Source of the DNA: Planctomycetota bacterium
GTDB taxonomy: Bacteria > Planctomycetota > UBA1135 > UBA2386
NCBI GenBank assembly: GCA_046290465.1
Contig: JBKAGP010000001.1
Coordinates: 6,464,001-6,528,000, forward strand
Length of the DNA: 64,000 nucleotides
Direction of reading: 5' to 3'
Shown in pieces: positions 11,002-18,504 of this stretch. The notes beneath the pieces were generated by a model. It saw nothing but the letters and a program-made list of their open reading frames with translations. It made no database searches and was not told the DNA's origin. The translations under genes and the position numbers were made by a program. Position 1 is the stretch's first letter, and each line of letters opens with the position of its first letter.

Positions 11002-13293
11002 ATGCAGCTCTCCCGATCCCTCGGCGCCGTCGCGCGCTACGCGACCCCGTTCGCGACGCTCTCCCCGCTCCTGTTGGCCCAGGTCCCGTCGACTCCGGTT
11101 GCGAGCAACCAGAACCCGACGACCCAGACGCCGACCAGTCAGAACCCGACCAACCAGACCCCGACCGGTCAGAACCCGACCGGTCCGACCCCGACCGGGC
11201 CGACCGCGACCGGGCCGACCGCCGTCCGTGCGCGCCCCGACTCGACGCAGGGTCCTGGCCGCCGCGTGTTCGTCACTGCGTCCCGGACCACGCGCGATCC
11301 GTTCGAGACGCCGCGCGCGGTCGACGTGGTCGACCTCGAGGACCTGCAGCGCAACCAGTTCCGCTCGGTCCCGCAGGCGCTGCGCAACCTGCCCAGCACG
11401 TTCATCCAGGAGACCTCGCCCGGCCAGGGCTCGCCGTACATCCGCGGCTTCACCGCCTACAACAACCTGATGCTGATCGACGGCATCCGGCTGAACAACT
11501 CGACGTTCCGCTCGGGGCCCAACCAGTACTGGGCGACCATCGATCCGATGTCGCTGTCGCGCATCGAGGTGGTGCGCGGCCCGGCCTCGACGCTGTGGGG
11601 CAGCGACGCCGTCGGCGGCACCGTGCAGGTGTTCACCAAGAGCCCGTCGCGCTACGGCACCGAGGGCGTGCGCTACGGCGGCGAGGTCTACGGCCGCTAC
11701 GCGACGGCCGAGGACTCGGTCGCGGCGCGCGGCGAGATCCACGTCGGCTTCACGCGCGAGGACGGCCTGCGCTCCGGCATCCTGATCGGCGGCAGCGCGC
11801 GGTCGCTCGGCGAGATCGAGGGCGGCAGCGCCACCGGTCGCCAGCCCAACACCGACCACGAGGAGAACGGCTTCGACCTCAAGTTCGAACACTGGCTCGA
11901 CCGGGACACCAAGCTGGTGTTCCTGCACCAGGAGTTCTCGCAGGACAACGTGCCGCGTACGCACTCGACCAACCAGGGCGTCTCGTGGCGCGGCGCGACG
12001 CCGGGCAGCGACCAGCGACGCGACAACGACCAGAACCGCCGCCTGAGCTACGTTCAGCTGCACAAGGACGGCATGGAAGGCGGCATGGAGTCGATGAAGC
12101 TGTCGCTGTCGTGGCAGACCCAGCAGTGGGTCGAGGACCGCCTGCGCAGCAACGGCACGTCGTCGACGTTCGACTCGTTCACGGTCGGCACGCTCGGCTT
12201 CTTCGCGCAGTTCGAGTCGGCCAGCCCGTTCGGCCACCTGACCTACGGCGTCGACTACTACCGCGACAACGTCAACAGCTCGCGCCGCCGCGACACCTAC
12301 CGCACCGGCGACGAGATCCAGGGCAAGGTCGGCAACGACGCCAGCTACGACCTGCTCGGCGTGTTCCTGCAGGATGTGCTGCCCCTCACCGACGACGTGC
12401 GCATCGAGGCGGGCGTGCGCTACACCTACGCCGCGGTCGACGCCGACAGCGTGCGCGACCCGTCGACCAATGGCCGCATCGGGGTCAGCAACGACTGGGA
12501 CGAGTTCACCGCCAACATCCGCGGCCTCGTCAACCTGACCGACGAGGTCAACCTGTACGCCGGCGCCAGCCAGGGCTTCCGCGCGCCGTCGCTGACCGAT
12601 CTGACCAGCTTCGACGTCGCGCGCAGCGGCGAGCAGGAGATCCCGGTCACCGACCTCGACGAAGAGCGCTTCGTCGGCTACGAGGTCGGCGCCAAGGTCC
12701 GCACCAGCCGCTTCTCGGCGCAGGCTGCGTGGTTCTACACCGACATCCAGGACCAGATCCTGCGCTTCCCGACCGGCACGACCAACCTGGCGGGCGACCC
12801 GATCGTCACCAAGGGCAACGTCGGCGACGGCTACATCCAGGGCGCCGAACTCAGCTACGCGGTCGAGGTCGTCGAGCGCACCGAGCTGTTCGGCTCGCAC
12901 AGCTACCAGTACGGGCGGATCTCGAACTTCCAGGACCCGAGCAGCCCGAACGTGATCAGCAACGACTACCCGACGCGCCTGATGCCGCTGCAGAACGTGA
13001 TCGGCGTGCGCTGGGAGAACGCCGAGGGCACGTTCCACGCCGCGACCACGGTGGTGCGGGCCGAAGACGCCGACAAGCTGTCGTTCCGCGACCAGGGCGA
13101 CACCCAGCGGATCCCGCCGGGCGGCACGCCGAGCTACACGATCTGGAACGCCAGCTGTGGCTGGCAGATGACCGAGCAGGCGAGCCTCGAGTGCGCCATC
13201 GAGAACATCACCAACGTCGACTACCGCGTGCACGGCTCGGGCAGCAACAGCCTGGGCACGAACTTCGTGTTCGGCATGCGCGTGACGTTCTGA
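11002..13293 (+). CDS. TonB-dependent outer-membrane receptor
   Basis: VFVTASR TonB-box-like; plug PYIRGF...LMLIDGIRLN; RIEVVRGPASTLWGSDAVGGTV; GFRAPSL; ENITNVDY; C-terminal Phe. Confidence 0.95.
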   Translation: MQLSRSLGAVARYATPFATLSPLLLAQVPSTPVASNQNPTTQTPTSQNPTNQTPTGQNPTGPTPTGPTATGPTAVRARPDSTQGPGRRVFVTASRTTRDPFETPRAVDVVDLEDLQRNQFRSVPQALRNLPSTFIQETSPGQGSPYIRGFTAYNNLMLIDGIRLNNSTFRSGPNQYWATIDPMSLSRIEVVRGPASTLWGSDAVGGTVQVFTKSPSRYGTEGVRYGGEVYGRYATAEDSVAARGEIHVGFTREDGLRSGILIGGSARSLGEIEGGSATGRQPNTDHEENGFDLKFEHWLDRDTKLVFLHQEFSQDNVPRTHSTNQGVSWRGATPGSDQRRDNDQNRRLSYVQLHKDGMEGGMESMKLSLSWQTQQWVEDRLRSNGTSSTFDSFTVGTLGFFAQFESASPFGHLTYGVDYYRDNVNSSRRRDTYRTGDEIQGKVGNDASYDLLGVFLQDVLPLTDDVRIEAGVRYTYAAVDADSVRDPSTNGRIGVSNDWDEFTANIRGLVNLTDEVNLYAGASQGFRAPSLTDLTSFDVARSGEQEIPVTDLDEERFVGYEVGAKVRTSRFSAQAAWFYTDIQDQILRFPTGTTNLAGDPIVTKGNVGDGYIQGAELSYAVEVVERTELFGSHSYQYGRISNFQDPSSPNVISNDYPTRLMPLQNVIGVRWENAEGTFHAATTVVRAEDADKLSFRDQGDTQRIPPGGTPSYTIWNASCGWQMTEQASLECAIENITNVDYRVHGSGSNSLGTNFVFGMRVTF
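11110..11222 (+). repeat. Degenerate 15-nt in-frame repeats encoding a QNPTT/QTPTS/PTG linker
   Basis: cagaacccgacgacc, cagacgccgaccagt, cagaacccgaccaac and similar units between the signal peptide and the TonB box. Confidence 0.75.
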
Positions 13294-13400
13294 GTGCGAT
13301 TCCGGGCCGCTGGCCCGCGGATTTCCGGCAGGCGCCCCGCCAGGTTGGCACGTCCGACCGGCGGGTCTCGAAATGGGGCACCCTGGGAGCCGTCGCGTTC

Positions 13401-13428
13401 TCAAGTTCGTCCTACGGGTTCCCGATGA
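13401..13428 (+). promoter_or_regulatory. Candidate sigma28-like promoter (TCAAG-N16-CCGATGA) of the actin operon
   Basis: TCAAG 13401-13405 and CCGAT 13422-13426, upstream of ATG 13471. Confidence 0.3.
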
Positions 13429-13470
13429 GAGGCCCGTCGCACACCGCAACCCGGTGCCGGCACGAGGCCA

Positions 13471-14280
13471 ATGGAATCCGTCAACGAGATCAAGGAAGCG
13501 CTGTCGGCGCGTTCGCGCACCGCGACCCTCGACGAGCTCAAGAGCGAGGGGCGCAAGCGCGTTCGCCTGATCCGCGCCGAGCACGTCGCGCAGATGATCA
13601 GCGAGGCGGTGCATGCGGCGATCGAGCACTCGGGCCTGCTCGGCCAGGACGAGGTCGACTTGCTCATCGAGAAGAGCCGGACCGAGTTCAAGTCGATCCT
13701 GCGCGAGCGCGAGCAGGAGCTGCAGACGGCGCGTGAGAACGAGGAGCAGCTCGAGGCCAAGGAACACGAGCTGACCGAGCTGAAGTCGCGCTTCAGCGAG
13801 CTGACCCGTTCGCTCGCTTCGACCCGCGCCGAGCTCGAGCAGACCAGGAACGAACTCGAGGTCGCACGCGACCTGCCGGCGCCGGCTGCGCCCGAGGCGG
13901 CGGCGCAACCTGCACCGGCGGCGATGTCGCCCGACATGATGATGTCGATGATGCAGGAGCTGGCCAACCTCAAGGCCAGCATGGCGCATCAGCAGCAGCC
14001 GCAGGGCGCACAGCAGGAGCAGGCCGCGTCGCCGGACTTCTCGGCCGCGCTCGACAAGCTGGCCGGAACGCTCAACGACCGACTCGACAGCTTCGGCAAG
14101 AAGATGGGCATCAGCTCCGCCGTCGGCGGCGATGGCCCGGTCGACTTCGGCGCGATGTTCAAGGACGACGACGACAACAAGCTCGAGTCGAACATGGAGA
14201 ACATTCAGGTGAAGCAGAAGGCCGCCGGGGGGATCGCGGCCAACCTCGCGAAGCTGAAGAAACTGAAGGGCGGCGGCTGA
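13471..14280 (+). CDS. Coiled-coil protein with basic amphipathic C-terminal helix; putative partner of the downstream actin-like protein
   Basis: E/K/L-rich heptad region (about aa 65-132), Ala/Pro linkers, C-terminus GGIAANLAKLKKLKGGG; 56 nt from the next gene on the same strand. Confidence 0.8.
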   Translation: MESVNEIKEALSARSRTATLDELKSEGRKRVRLIRAEHVAQMISEAVHAAIEHSGLLGQDEVDLLIEKSRTEFKSILREREQELQTARENEEQLEAKEHELTELKSRFSELTRSLASTRAELEQTRNELEVARDLPAPAAPEAAAQPAPAAMSPDMMMSMMQELANLKASMAHQQQPQGAQQEQAASPDFSAALDKLAGTLNDRLDSFGKKMGISSAVGGDGPVDFGAMFKDDDDNKLESNMENIQVKQKAAGGIAANLAKLKKLKGGG

Positions 14281-14336
14281 TCGCAGAGTCGCCGACGCGG
14301 ACACACAACCAACCGGGAAGAGAAGGCGGAAGAGCT

Positions 14337-15380
14337 ATGACTGAACAAGACGACATTGATCCGAACATCGATCAGGGCACCGAGACCGCGGTCGGCCTCG
14401 GCAAGGGCCTGGACGTGGGCACCGCGAACCTGGCGGCGGCCGTGCAGAACGACGAAGGCGGCATCACCGTCAACGTCGAGCGCAACGCGTTCCTGGACAT
14501 CCCGAGCGACGTTTACAGCAAGAACATGCTGACGAAGCTCAAGGTCCCGTACGTCGTGCACAACGGCAAGCTGGTCGTGATCGGCGAGGCGGCGTTCGAG
14601 CTGGCCAACGTCTTCGGCCGCGAGACCCGCCGCCCGATGGCGGACGGCCTGGTCAGCCCGAACGAGCAGGACGCGCTGCCGATGATGAAGATGATCATCC
14701 AGAAGATCCTGGGCGAGCCCCAGGAGCCGGGTGAGAACTGCTACTTCTGCGTGCCGGCCGAGTCGCTGGACGTCGACAACAACGTCGTCTACCACCAGGG
14801 CCTGTTCGAGAGCATGATCAGCAAGCTCGGCTACAAGGCCCACGCGATCAACGAAGCCCACGCGGTGATCTTCTCGGAACTGGCCGAGAACGACTTCACC
14901 GGCATCGGCCTCTCGTTCGGCGGCGGCATGGCCAACGCCTGCATCGCCTACAAGTCGATCCCGTGCCTGTCGTTCTCGGTGGCGCGCGGCGGCGACTGGA
15001 TCGACAAGAACGTGTCGAGCGTGCTGGGCGTCCCGCGCAGCAAGGCGACGGCGATCAAGGAGCGCGGCATCGACATCCGCGATCCCAAGAGCCGCGAGGA
15101 GGAGGCGGTCGCGATCTACTACCGCAGCCTGATCAACTACGTGCTCGAGAACATCAAGTCGCGCTTCGAGTCGGGCCAGAACATGCCCAGCTTCAACGAG
15201 CCGATCGACATCGCCTGCGCTGGCGGCACGTCGATGGTCGGCGGCTTCATCGAGGTCTTCCGCGAGGAGTTCGCGAAGATCGACTTCCCGATCCCGGTCG
15301 GTCGCATCTTCCGCAGCGAAGAGGCCCTGACGGCGGTGGCGAAGGGCTGCCTGGTCGCCGCGGCGATCGGCGAAGAGTAG
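14337..15380 (+). CDS. Actin-like ATPase, volactin-like family
   Basis: Phosphate-1 GLDVGTAN; ETRRPMADG; INEAHAVIFSELAENDFTGIGLSFGGGMANAC (connect-1 and phosphate-2); FSVARGGDWID; adenosine AGGTSMVGGF; AVAKGCL. Confidence 0.88.
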   Translation: MTEQDDIDPNIDQGTETAVGLGKGLDVGTANLAAAVQNDEGGITVNVERNAFLDIPSDVYSKNMLTKLKVPYVVHNGKLVVIGEAAFELANVFGRETRRPMADGLVSPNEQDALPMMKMIIQKILGEPQEPGENCYFCVPAESLDVDNNVVYHQGLFESMISKLGYKAHAINEAHAVIFSELAENDFTGIGLSFGGGMANACIAYKSIPCLSFSVARGGDWIDKNVSSVLGVPRSKATAIKERGIDIRDPKSREEEAVAIYYRSLINYVLENIKSRFESGQNMPSFNEPIDIACAGGTSMVGGFIEVFREEFAKIDFPIPVGRIFRSEEALTAVAKGCLVAAAIGEE

Positions 15381-15438
15381 CGTCGAAGAGCGGGTCGGCC
15401 GGGCAGCCCGCCACCGGGCGGGCGCAGCGGGCCGACGA

Positions 15439-15470
15439 AGCCGGCGGACGGAGCAGCCGGCGGACGGAGC
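15439..15470 (+). repeat. 16-bp direct repeat, 2 copies (AGCCGGCGGACGGAGC)
   Basis: Exact copies at 15439-15454 and 15455-15470. Confidence 0.85.
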
Positions 15471-15472
15471 AG

Positions 15473-15511
15473 AAGGGCGCGACGGGGCCGGGCGGTCCCG
15501 GTCGCGCCCTT
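15473..15511. terminator. Hairpin between convergent genes, probable terminator
   Basis: AAGGGCGCGAC (15473-15483) pairs with GTCGCGCCCTT (15501-15511); no clear U tract. Confidence 0.55.
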
Positions 15512-15531
15512 GCTGCATCGAGGCGTGAGGC

Positions 15532-18504
15532 TCAGAGCTTCAGCCGCACCCGCAGCCAGCTGCTGATCTCGCGCTCCTCGGGCAGCACCGGGTCGAACGA
15601 GAACGCGGCGACGTACAGGTCGAGCCCGGCGAGGAACGGGATCGGCGGCACGAAGAGCTTGGGGGCGGCGCTGGCTGCGCCGTCCAGCGTGCCGCCGAAG
15701 TCCTGGAACACCGGACTCGGGATCAGGCTCGCCTGCAGGATGCCGCCGTCGCGCAGCGGCAGCACGCCGCCGAGCGGCAGCGTGATCGGCGGGTCGATCG
15801 CTTCGCTCAGCGCACAGACGAACGGCATGCCGGCCTCGCCCGGCAGCCGCAGGTCGAACGTCGCCTGCTGGCCCATGGTCACGTCGGTCGCGCCGCCGAG
15901 CCGCTGGCCGTCGAGCAGGAACGCCATCGTCTGCTGCAGCAGCTGCGCGCGCACGTCGTCGTCGAGCAGCGTCTCGAGCGGCACGCCGAGCACGCAGATG
16001 CGCGCACCGGAGCCCGGCTGCACCGTTTGCACACCGGCGCCCAGTCCGTTGCCGTAGCGCAGGCAGGTCGCGCCGTTGGCGGTGGTCGGCACCAGTACGT
16101 CCGGGAAGTCGACGTCGTAGGTCGGGCCGCTGCCGTCGTCGAACGCGGTCGCCGCGACGCCTTCGCTGACGGTGCCGGGGACGCCTGCCTGCAGCGTGTA
16201 GGTGCCGGCGTCGTCGGCGACGTAGGTCGCGCCGAGCGTGTTGCGGAAGAAGGTGCGGTCGCCGGCCGAGCCGAGCCAGTCGAGGTCCCAGCCGACCTCG
16301 GCACCGGTCACCAGCAGCGCGCCGCCGCCGTTGAGGTAGAGCGTCAGCGCGAACTGCTCGACGGTGTCGAGCGTCTCGTCGTCGGTGCTCTCCTCGCCGA
16401 GGCTCCAGACCACCGCGTCGTAGTCGTTGAGCGCGACCCTTCCGAGCTTGACGGCCTCGTTGCTGGCGGCGTCGAAGCCGAGCGAGAAGCGGGCGTCGCG
16501 GCGCAGCGCGGAGCCGAAGCGCGCCAGGTAGTCGCGCGTGTTCTCCGGGCCCTTGACGGTGCGGCCGAGGCGGTCGAAGCCCTGCACCAGCAGCGCCTGC
16601 GCGGTCGCCAGGTGGTCGGTGCCGGCGGTCAGCACCTCGGTCGGGAACGACCGGCCGGTCTGGTTCCACGCCCGCACCCGGAACGAACGGCTGCTGTGGT
16701 GCGGCAGCGGGCCGGTCGACCACGACAGCGTCGTGACGTTGGCGACCTCGACGAAGCCCTTGCCGTCGAGCGACTGCTCGACCGTGTAGAAGGTCGCGCC
16801 GGGGGCGGTGTCCCACGCGACCTGCAGGCCGCGGTTGCCGTCCTGGGTGACGCGCAGCGCCGTCGGCGGCTCGGGCGGGAACGGCGCCAGCGGCGCGAAG
16901 TAGCGCAGCACGCCGCGGGCGTAGGCGCGCGCCGCCAGGTAGCGGAACTCCGGCTCGTGCAGCGAGTCGTGGTCCAGGGAGCCGGGCGTGTCGTGGAACG
17001 CCATCTCGACCAGGATCCCGGGCATGCTGCTCAGCAGCCGCAGTTCGCCGAAGTTGGCCTGCTGCTGGCCGCGGTCGACCCAGCTCGGGTTCCACTCGTT
17101 GCGCAGGTCGTTGATGATCTGCGTGTGCACGGCGTTGCTCAGCGCCGCGGAACCGGCGGTCGCGCCGCCCGAGTAGGTGAACGTGTCGGTGCCGCTGCCA
17201 CCGCCGGCGTTGGTGTGCAGCGACACGAACGCGTCGGCGGTGCGCCACTCGGCGAACCGCGGCCGCGCGGTGACGTCGTCGCTGTTGTCCTGGCCGCCGG
17301 CGACCGAGTTGTAGACCGACGCCGGCGCGCCGGCGAACTGCGCCCAGTAGCGCGCGCACTCGCGCCAGCGTTCCTGCAGCGACGTCGTGCCGCCGCGCAC
17401 GATCGAACCTAGGCCGCCGCCGAGCCGCACCGCGTCGGCGATCACGACGCCCGGGCTCGGCGAGCGGTCGCTGAGCGTGACCGTCGCGCCCTGCTGCGCG
17501 GTGAACCAGTAGTTGCCGAGGTGGGCCCAGGTCAGGTTGTCGACGGTCTGGTCGACCGTGACCTCGTCGACGCCGCCGCTGTGCTGCACCCGGTAGATGG
17601 CCTCCGGGGTGCGGTTGCCGCTGGCGCGGAACCACGCGAACACCGGGTAGAGGCCGTCCTCGGCGACCGGGATCTGCCAGGTCGCCGTGGCGGTCTCGAC
17701 GGTGGGGTTGCTGCTGGCGAAGCGGTAGGTCGAGTTCTGGTAGCCCGACGACGCCGACGTGCTCCAGCCGCCGGTCTCGGTGTAGGCCGGCGCGCCCTGG
17801 TCGTTGTCGGCCAGCCCGTCGACCGCGCGTTCGCCGGGTTCGCGGCAGAACACGACGTCGGCGCCCATGTTCTGCAAGAACGGGATCAGGTAGCGGTTGG
17901 CGATCTGGGCGGTGTGGATGTCCTCGATCAGGCCGCCGATGTTGCCGCGCTGGGTGGTCCAGCCGAGCGACGAGTGCCAGTAGTAGCCGTGGCCGGGCGA
18001 CACCGCGATGCGCTTGCCGGCGAGCGAGCCGAACGAGGCGACCAGTGACGCACCCGGCTGCGCCTGGCCCTGGCCCGGCTGCGGCAGCGGCGGTCGGCCG
18101 AGCGCCTCGCCGAGTTCGACGACCGAGCCGTCGTCGCGCTGCACGTGGATCTCGCAGCGGGACACGCCGGCGGCGGCGAGCACGGTCTTGTCGATCTGTT
18201 CGACCGCGTGCTCGCGCTCACAGCCGGGGGCCGCGCGCAACAGGTCGCTGCTGAACGTGACGCGCACGGTCGCGCCGGTGTGGCGGCAGGCGACCAGCCG
18301 GGTGCCGCGCGGCAGGTGGCTGCGCAGGCCCTGGGCCGCCTGGGCCGCGTCGGGACCGGCGCACAGCTGCCGCATCGCGGCTGCGACATCGGTGTGCAGC
18401 GGCGGCACGGCGCAGAGGTTGCGGTCGCGGAAGAACAGCACGTTCTGGGCGGTCAGGCACGTCGACGTGGCGAGCGTCGCGGCGAGCAGCGGAAGGAGGT
18501 GCAT
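15532..18504 (-). CDS. Secreted multidomain N-acetylmuramoyl-L-alanine amidase (Amidase_3) with GerMN-like, golvesin/Xly-like and FN3 domains
   Basis: Signal peptide; RIAVSPGHG, IEDIHT, FVSLHTNA, LVEMAFHD; inserted ATATW...GLYPVFAW...WAHLGNYWF...VIADAVR domain; FN3 PPTALRV...FRVRAWN. Confidence 0.85.
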   Translation of the reverse strand: MHLLPLLAATLATSTCLTAQNVLFFRDRNLCAVPPLHTDVAAAMRQLCAGPDAAQAAQGLRSHLPRGTRLVACRHTGATVRVTFSSDLLRAAPGCEREHAVEQIDKTVLAAAGVSRCEIHVQRDDGSVVELGEALGRPPLPQPGQGQAQPGASLVASFGSLAGKRIAVSPGHGYYWHSSLGWTTQRGNIGGLIEDIHTAQIANRYLIPFLQNMGADVVFCREPGERAVDGLADNDQGAPAYTETGGWSTSASSGYQNSTYRFASSNPTVETATATWQIPVAEDGLYPVFAWFRASGNRTPEAIYRVQHSGGVDEVTVDQTVDNLTWAHLGNYWFTAQQGATVTLSDRSPSPGVVIADAVRLGGGLGSIVRGGTTSLQERWRECARYWAQFAGAPASVYNSVAGGQDNSDDVTARPRFAEWRTADAFVSLHTNAGGGSGTDTFTYSGGATAGSAALSNAVHTQIINDLRNEWNPSWVDRGQQQANFGELRLLSSMPGILVEMAFHDTPGSLDHDSLHEPEFRYLAARAYARGVLRYFAPLAPFPPEPPTALRVTQDGNRGLQVAWDTAPGATFYTVEQSLDGKGFVEVANVTTLSWSTGPLPHHSSRSFRVRAWNQTGRSFPTEVLTAGTDHLATAQALLVQGFDRLGRTVKGPENTRDYLARFGSALRRDARFSLGFDAASNEAVKLGRVALNDYDAVVWSLGEESTDDETLDTVEQFALTLYLNGGGALLVTGAEVGWDLDWLGSAGDRTFFRNTLGATYVADDAGTYTLQAGVPGTVSEGVAATAFDDGSGPTYDVDFPDVLVPTTANGATCLRYGNGLGAGVQTVQPGSGARICVLGVPLETLLDDDVRAQLLQQTMAFLLDGQRLGGATDVTMGQQATFDLRLPGEAGMPFVCALSEAIDPPITLPLGGVLPLRDGGILQASLIPSPVFQDFGGTLDGAASAAPKLFVPPIPFLAGLDLYVAAFSFDPVLPEEREISSWLRVRLKL

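Follow-up and report, generated by a model that had tools for sequence, protein, structure and literature searches.

Volactin (VolA, HVO_2015) has been studied so far in one archaeon. In Haloferax it forms dynamic filaments whose tips attach to the membrane, and in the accessible part of the paper the authors call the factors behind tip attachment unknown (PMC10869688). One proteomics table in the available part of its supplement shows HVO_2015 and HVO_2016 changing together in three of five comparisons. HVO_2016 is a CdpA-like protein whose gene adjoins volactin, according to the portion of PMC12126565 that could be consulted, which also states that CdpA has no direct homolog in Bacteria. A bacterial point of comparison is saltatorellin, a MamK-like actin found in the Saltatorellus clade, which assembles into filaments when expressed in other hosts (available text of 10.1101/817700).

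The window, which is the whole 64,000-nucleotide stretch of planctomycete DNA analysed, carries a pair of plus-strand genes separated by 56 nt. The first, at 13471..14280, encodes a soluble protein of 269 aa, called the adaptor here, and the second, at 14337..15380, encodes an actin ATPase of 347 aa. These are the two open reading frames described in the initial annotation, which had proposed a volactin-like actin with a coiled-coil partner and had seen no mreC/mreD or ftsZ beside them. The neighbours are indeed others: a TonB-dependent receptor gene on one side and a convergent amidase/golvesin gene on the other, with mreB far off. The convergent gene (window 15532-18504, minus strand) encodes golvesin and N-acetylmuramoyl-L-alanine amidase domains; it adjoins the pair at 39 of the 81 close loci and at none of the 43 distant ones. 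Beyond close kin, no third gene is conserved next to the pair. Between the actin gene and the amidase gene, a repeat scan picked up a 15-bp inverted repeat (15473..15511), possibly a terminator hairpin though lacking a T run, which a terminator scan did not call. No sigma-70 promoter was found at the locus. Shared strand and close spacing are the basis for suggesting that the two genes may be co-transcribed. Contigs from RNA libraries of related strains cover both genes in 4 of 4 runs, although level, strand and a shared transcript are not deducible from contigs, and two of them span the 56-nt gap, which is not proof of one transcript.

The downstream protein matches the Pfam Volactin family (PF25216) at 278.7 bits against a cut-off of 35, over profile positions 3-321 of 321. 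Scores for other actin families fall below their cut-offs: 19.7 bits for MreB in Pfam (27) and 14.2 in TIGR00904 (366), 13.8 for the MamK-like model NF040964 (far below 400), and 22.9 for FtsA (31.8). PilM profile matches lie elsewhere in the genome and not on this gene, and the Mad28 model has no match to it among the NCBIfam matches listed. Five haloarchaeal plasmid records match the actin with 40-41% identity over 93-94% of its length, and its named homologs are from Planctomycetota. The actin-ATPase motifs read in the initial annotation, including the SFGGGM form of phosphate-2, are intact and were mapped on the protein: phosphate-1 DVGT at residue 26, ETRRPM at 96, the block INEAHAV..SFGGGM from 171 with the catalytic E173, FSVARGGDWID at 213, the adenosine motif AGGTS at 295 and connect-2 at 333. 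In a family-profile alignment, E173 corresponds to E143 of MamK and the SFGGGM stretch to DIGAGT of MamK, which is the closest solved sequence to the family profile (E 2e-11). The structure model has an actin fold (pLDDT 92) with its best matches in MreB and MamK at TM 0.55-0.73, and a search of a viral fold library returned only Hsp70-like proteins and distant actins.

Two quick trees place the protein in the same way. With 105 rows, a branch with SH-aLRT 98 sets the planctomycete, haloarchaeal and phage volactins to one side, and the split holds at SH-aLRT 96 with 48 rows, after long branches and near-copies had been removed. MamK-like and MreB rows fall apart from the volactins, and FtsA and PilM are long branches outside. 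The haloarchaeal rows are plasmid-borne homologs rather than HVO_2015 itself, and the trees were built without magnetosome MamK, Mad28, salactin, ParM and crenactin. The profile search, the identity to haloarchaeal volactins and the trees all bear out the volactin call of the initial annotation: the product of 14337-15380 is a volactin-family actin, and it nests in none of the MreB, MamK-like, FtsA and PilM groups.

The host genome is a single contig of 6.59 Mb, 94% complete. Its mreB lies in a cluster of its own, 1.1 Mb from the pair when counted over the contig end on the assumption of a circular contig, and a MamK-like actin is encoded at G000:C1:1706430-1707521 (415 bits to NF040964, over the cut-off of 400). 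Judged by sequence family, the host has three filament-type actins: volactin, MreB and a MamK-like one of saltatorellin type. The initial annotation had passed over the latter two, including the fact that the partner of the MamK-like actin has the N-terminal domain of the adaptor. Identity of the window's actin with saltatorellin was considered and rejected: the MamK-like gene fits the C-terminus implied by the published primer ends and the volactin does not, so the volactin is not the published actin. The gas-vesicle family PF00741 has no match in the host genome, but it matched none of the control genomes either, which leaves this result uninformative.

The adaptor consists of a so far undescribed N-terminal domain (N-domain, about residues 1-85, 13471..13725), a coiled-coil spacer (about residues 71-133, 13681..13869), a low-complexity linker and a conserved C-terminal tail (residues 238-266, 14182..14268) that is a predicted volactin-binding motif. 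In the heptad repeat of the spacer, 8 of 9 positions at one register are hydrophobic. No transmembrane helix was found (maximum 19-residue hydropathy 0.8), and no Pfam or NCBIfam family scores over its cut-off. The adaptor has 341 homologs. Conservation is highest at both ends, and the coiled coil and linker between them vary in length, with whole adaptors of 170-705 aa among the relatives.

Of 80 close loci, 79 have an adaptor homolog directly upstream of the actin, and the remaining one begins inside the actin gene. For a more distant set, 60 stretches were picked by hand from the PF25216 matches of the phylum, 43 of them in or near the host clade. N-domain and tail are both encoded upstream in 38 of these 43, and the tail is found by a tighter profile in 2 more; the remainder are 1 fusion and 2 loci without a partner alongside. 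The partner gene of the initial annotation is borne out as conserved. The other 17 stretches hold a second clade or divergent copies. Ten second-clade loci were looked at, and in 9 of them the gene before the actin carries a different N-domain and a tail that has diverged further (hhalign E 0.001, probability 18%). Family f54 encodes an N-domain and tail gene elsewhere in the genome, unlinked from a neighbourless actin, in 3 of 3 loci fetched. One 707-aa open reading frame (L180:5974-8094, minus strand) fuses N-domain and coiled coil to a volactin, and no tail was detected in it. The best explanation of the pairing, which is strict, is that the upstream protein is a dedicated adaptor of the volactin.

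The second planctomycete clade (L191, L193-L198, L200, L201), with its different partner N-domain and divergent tail, has volactins that carry an insertion next to the groove discussed below. The partner at a phage locus (L211) resembles the second-clade partner by eye.

The tail is made of an ESN motif, a short strand and an amphipathic basic helix; N241 is invariant, and E239 and L259 are nearly so. Of the 113 volactin-positive genomes 78 have it, compared with none of the 188 volactin-negative ones. Genomes with only the MamK-like actin lack it (0 of 49), and 37 of those 49 have the N-domain. Among the 35 volactin-positive genomes without the tail, 16 belong to one family with a divergent copy. 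These counts come from tail and N-domain profiles built from loci of the same genomes, in which kin are not independent, and no statistic is claimed for them.

Complex prediction put the adaptor tail on the actin with a score of 0.67 (runs of 0.67, 0.77 and 0.66), compared with 0.20 for the best of three controls. Of 157 solved complexes 116 reach the mark used for such scores, as do 2 of 215 mismatched pairs; this calibration is only roughly valid for custom alignments. The runs share at least 65% of their contacts, and the partner has a pLDDT of 58-60. I255, N258, L259 and L262 of the tail helix are modelled against F179, S180, A183, F187, S207 and K336-A343 of the actin, and the tail strand against actin residues 41-48. 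The helix F179-F187 that follows the catalytic Glu (14871..14897) would form one wall of the predicted groove, and the last helix, K336-I344 (15342..15368), the opposite wall. Interface residues are no more conserved than the actin as a whole (0.72 against 0.75; groove subset 0.80).

By motif mapping, the tail seems to sit in the barbed-end groove between subdomains IA and IIA, because the contacted residues come after the catalytic Glu and after the final Gly motif, where the groove of actin lies; the actin residue numbers used for this placement are ones that we take to line that groove. ParR binds ParM at the barbed-end groove. In actin, the WH2 groove lies between subdomains 1 and 3, as given in the accessible part of PMC13364712. 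The complex score is a confidence of the model, which may recall its helix-in-groove arrangement from solved WH2 or ParR complexes. With the modelled contacts and the co-occurrence together, the tail quite probably binds the volactin actin, and the chances are somewhat better than even that it does so at the filament end and tethers it.

Binding in the predicted groove could equally sequester monomers, and it is chiefly on monomers that WH2 motifs occupy this groove (available text of PMC13364712). The adaptor could accordingly be a monomer-binding regulator that sequesters, caps or nucleates without tethering anything, with an N-domain that only oligomerises. Its lack of a membrane helix would suit such a role, and so would the N-domain modelled alone, which gives open helices (pTM 0.47), as expected of an oligomerisation module. 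We nevertheless consider this unlikely: a look-alike tail sits on membrane proteins in haloarchaea and phages, the long coiled coil of variable length suits a spacer between two binding ends, and the fusion of N-domain to actin suits delivery of the actin to a place.

A profile of adaptor residues 1-85 finds just two proteins in the host genome, the adaptor itself and the gene upstream of the MamK-like actin (G000:C1:1707552-1708346; E 4e-4, then 3e-9 after one iteration). Among 30 other MamK-like loci, taken with 1.5-kb flanks, 13 likewise have the domain upstream of the actin gene. Counted by genome, it is present in 127 of 301, which are 127 of the 162 with either actin and 0 of the 139 with neither. 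It has 846 representatives at E<=0.001, and its alignment contains one stray row (L035). Pfam was run on 99 of 150 representatives and gave matches in 2. Fold searches returned no clear match for it (best Z 5.5 at rmsd 5.5, none at E<=0.001, Atlas feature scores <=0.78), a result from which neither novelty nor the absence of a known fold follows. The partners on the MamK side have another conserved tail at their C-terminus, with no relation to the volactin tail (hhalign E 0.15). Twenty N-domain genes located away from the listed actin matches were retrieved, and an actin is alongside in 0 of the 20; by profile, 7 have a volactin-type tail, 2 have a weak or clear tail of the MamK-partner type, and the rest have neither.

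Some N-domain genes have contexts of their own. In the host, the MamK-like actin follows a 264-aa partner with the common N-domain and its own conserved tail (G000:C1:1706430-1709117, L116), a ParA/MinD/CpsD-type P-loop gene lies upstream of that partner, and the partner goes unmentioned in the available text of 10.1101/817700. Extra N-domain and tail genes at L216-L218 are directly upstream of a gene with DUF4388 and TPR domains, not of an actin. At L232:4441-6387 (minus strand), the N-domain match is in an open reading frame that ends in a SpoIIE-type phosphatase domain.

Basic residues cluster around a conserved Gly in the N-domain, and an extended segment precedes a helix. This could suit a DNA-segregation system like ParM/ParR, in which an N-domain dimer would bind DNA and the tail would couple it to growing filament ends, and the two-gene layout and predicted end-binding C-terminal helix match the logic of ParR. 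Two tandem second volactins of one family have an N-terminal ParB-type HTH, over the cut-off at L160:5587-7500 (minus strand) and below it at L170:7065-8534 (plus strand), while the paralogs at L159, L161 and L179 have none; the related salactin affects DNA partitioning (PMC10746226, part of the text). The surroundings of the pair make a segregation role quite unlikely. As the initial annotation had noted, no centromere-like repeat array is beside the genes, and none was found in the three intergenic stretches scanned (13200-13500, 14250-14360 and 15370-15560). An origin-proximal location was considered and rejected, since the pair is about 2.3 Mb from dnaA, near which the genome has its parB. 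An adaptor that can be unlinked from its actin is not easily compatible with a cis-acting par cassette, and the archaeal and phage partners are membrane proteins.

The initial annotation had offered division as one possible role, and the host genome, 94% complete, yielded no match to tubulin/FtsZ. Volactin is single-copy and highly conserved in the host family, with a match in 50 of 51 genomes. In archaea the partner is paralogous to CdpA, a division anchor, and a CdpA pull-down contained volactin (log2FC 2.5, p 0.06; accessible part of PMC12126565). Yet in the same order family f2 has volactin in a single genome of 51 and family f3 in none of 29, and across the phylum 113 of the 301 genomes sampled pass the PF25216 cut-off. 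A core role in division is argued against because whole FtsZ-less families are without volactin. There is also no division or wall-synthesis gene among the conserved neighbours, given the amidase counts above, and Haloferax volactin does not overlap FtsZ, from which it is spatially separate (consulted part of the PMC10869688 supplement). That the pair belongs to an FtsZ-independent division machine of planctomycetes is very unlikely on these grounds. In family f2, 8 of 8 genomes encode the MamK-like actin, a pattern that agrees with the two-actin set reported for cultured Saltatorellus-clade strains, and f2 is presumably their family.

Other forms of the family were seen in the phylum. Family f7 has, in 16 of 16 genomes, very divergent volactin-like genes with no N-domain or tail (L082, L092, L203), located downstream of a single-pass membrane protein. 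Divergent volactin domains are fused to a type II/IV secretion (PilT-like) ATPase at L204:1200-4199, L206:4975-8448 and L207:4552-7092.

The gene upstream of haloarchaeal volactins encodes a DUF7139 (PF23600) membrane protein in 3 of 3 cases tested, and of the 62 haloarchaeal-type loci that extend far enough upstream, 57 have a CdpA-like protein next to volactin. A tail profile built from planctomycetes only ranks this neighbour first in 49 of the 57 loci (22 of 25 after thinning), in competition with a median of 93 six-frame open reading frames, most of which are not genes, which flatters the rank. The tail profile of the MamK partners, used as a control, ranks it first in 0 of 57. The planctomycete profile matches the CdpA-like protein at two C-terminal repeats. 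In profile-profile comparison the tails score 22.6, against 9.6 +/- 1.9 for column-shuffled profiles (0 of 100 as high) and 14.5 for the reversed profile; hhalign gives a probability of 30-41% on the whole C-region and 67% on a window chosen afterwards, and single-sequence E-values are 0.07 or worse.

Volactins are also carried by 569 of 600 candidate viral stretches. In one group of marine phages, the actin is accompanied in 41 of 45 loci with enough flank by a small single-pass membrane protein with a similar basic C-terminal helix (tail match E 0.004, probability 9%). Marine phage volactins are beside head and capsid-type genes, with the stop codon of the partner often overlapping the start of the actin (L242-L320, L213-L215), and roughly 3 kb separate a Halogeometricum plasmid volactin from sph (SMC-like) and rdfA, two shape genes (L210:6001-12963). 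It is likely, though not proven, that the tails of the planctomycete, haloarchaeal and phage partners share ancestry. Since the cross-domain and phage tail matches are weak, convergence of a basic amphipathic helix is possible.

Altogether, we are led to suspect that the upstream protein is a filament-end adaptor, with its tail on the barbed-end groove, its coiled coil as dimerisation element and spacer, and its N-domain as a dock, a reading to which we give a probability of about 60%. In such a system the tail would add a strand to subdomain IA and lay its helix in the IA/IIA groove, the adaptor would dimerise by its coiled coil and hold or nucleate filament ends, and the N-domain would dock on a cellular hub also used by the MamK-like actin system. 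Dynamic, tip-anchored filaments might then span the cytoplasm as in Haloferax and serve in shape remodelling or the positioning of internal structures. For the cellular job itself, shape or internal positioning is a tentative choice, a little short of even odds. The filament and adaptor system proposed in the initial annotation is thus strengthened by the complex model and the co-occurrence, and its division option is not supported as a core role.

Across lineages, the tail would be the conserved coupling piece and the anchor would be swapped: haloarchaea would use four membrane helices, marine phages a single one and planctomycetes a soluble domain. A wider and more speculative proposal, which we would not back at even odds, is that the tail is a portable volactin-binding motif of ancient origin, the prokaryotic answer to WH2, passed down together with the actin in bacteria, haloarchaea and phages and joined to different anchors, that it explains tip attachment in Haloferax through HVO_2016, and that one undescribed docking domain links the unrelated volactin and saltatorellin-type systems to a common hub. 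The locus offers a candidate motif of 30 residues together with a predicted binding site, and HVO_2016 becomes a candidate tether gene, testable in a genetically tractable organism. To the planctomycetes, in which shape change and FtsZ-less division are unexplained, a third actin system is added, and a common domain underlies the adaptors of two of their actins. If the proposal is true, FtsZ-less, deep-branching planctomycetes have a three-actin cytoskeleton with interchangeable adaptors.

A literature search by title and abstract, with subscription papers outside its reach, found no paper on a bacterial volactin, consistent with the initial annotation, which knew of no functional description in bacteria; the actin homologs in Table S4 of 10.1101/817700 may bear on priority. 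Nowhere in the literature searched is volactin linked to planctomycetes, and one review names both without linking them. The word "volactin" is absent from the main text of a 2026 preprint on predatory planctomycetes. For HVO_2016, CdpA-like proteins, DUF7139 and CdpA2, nothing relevant was found beyond the CdpA paper and its preprint.

Among known systems, the pair resembles ParM/ParR/parC as an actin with a small adaptor whose C-terminal helix is predicted on the barbed-end groove, but it is chromosomal and without parC-like repeats, the N-domain modelled as a monomer gave no clear ribbon-helix-helix match, and the actin is not of the ParM family. The tail is like WH2 (PMC13364712, accessible part) in joining a short amphipathic groove helix to an extended segment, and the archaeal partners have tandem copies; its order of strand then helix is the reverse of WH2, and the likeness is one of analogy. 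Saltatorellin is comparable too, along with BeeR and MamK: it is a second non-MreB actin in the same bacterial group, and its upstream partner has the common N-domain, but in the host it is a separate gene from the volactin, of a different clade and with a different partner tail. HVO_2016/DUF7139 (PF23600) is alike in adjoining volactin and in its layout of anchor, linker and weakly similar C-terminal motif. The haloarchaeal partner has four membrane helices and two tail repeats, while the planctomycete adaptor is soluble, with an unrelated N-domain, a single tail and neither DUF7139 domain nor membrane helix, and the likeness is not extended to CdpA proper (HVO_0739). Haloferax VolA (HVO_2015, PMC10869688) shares with the actin of the window its family, its motif set, an identity of about 40% across haloarchaeal members and a partner gene directly upstream, whereas the host here is a bacterium with MreB and peptidoglycan-type envelope genes.
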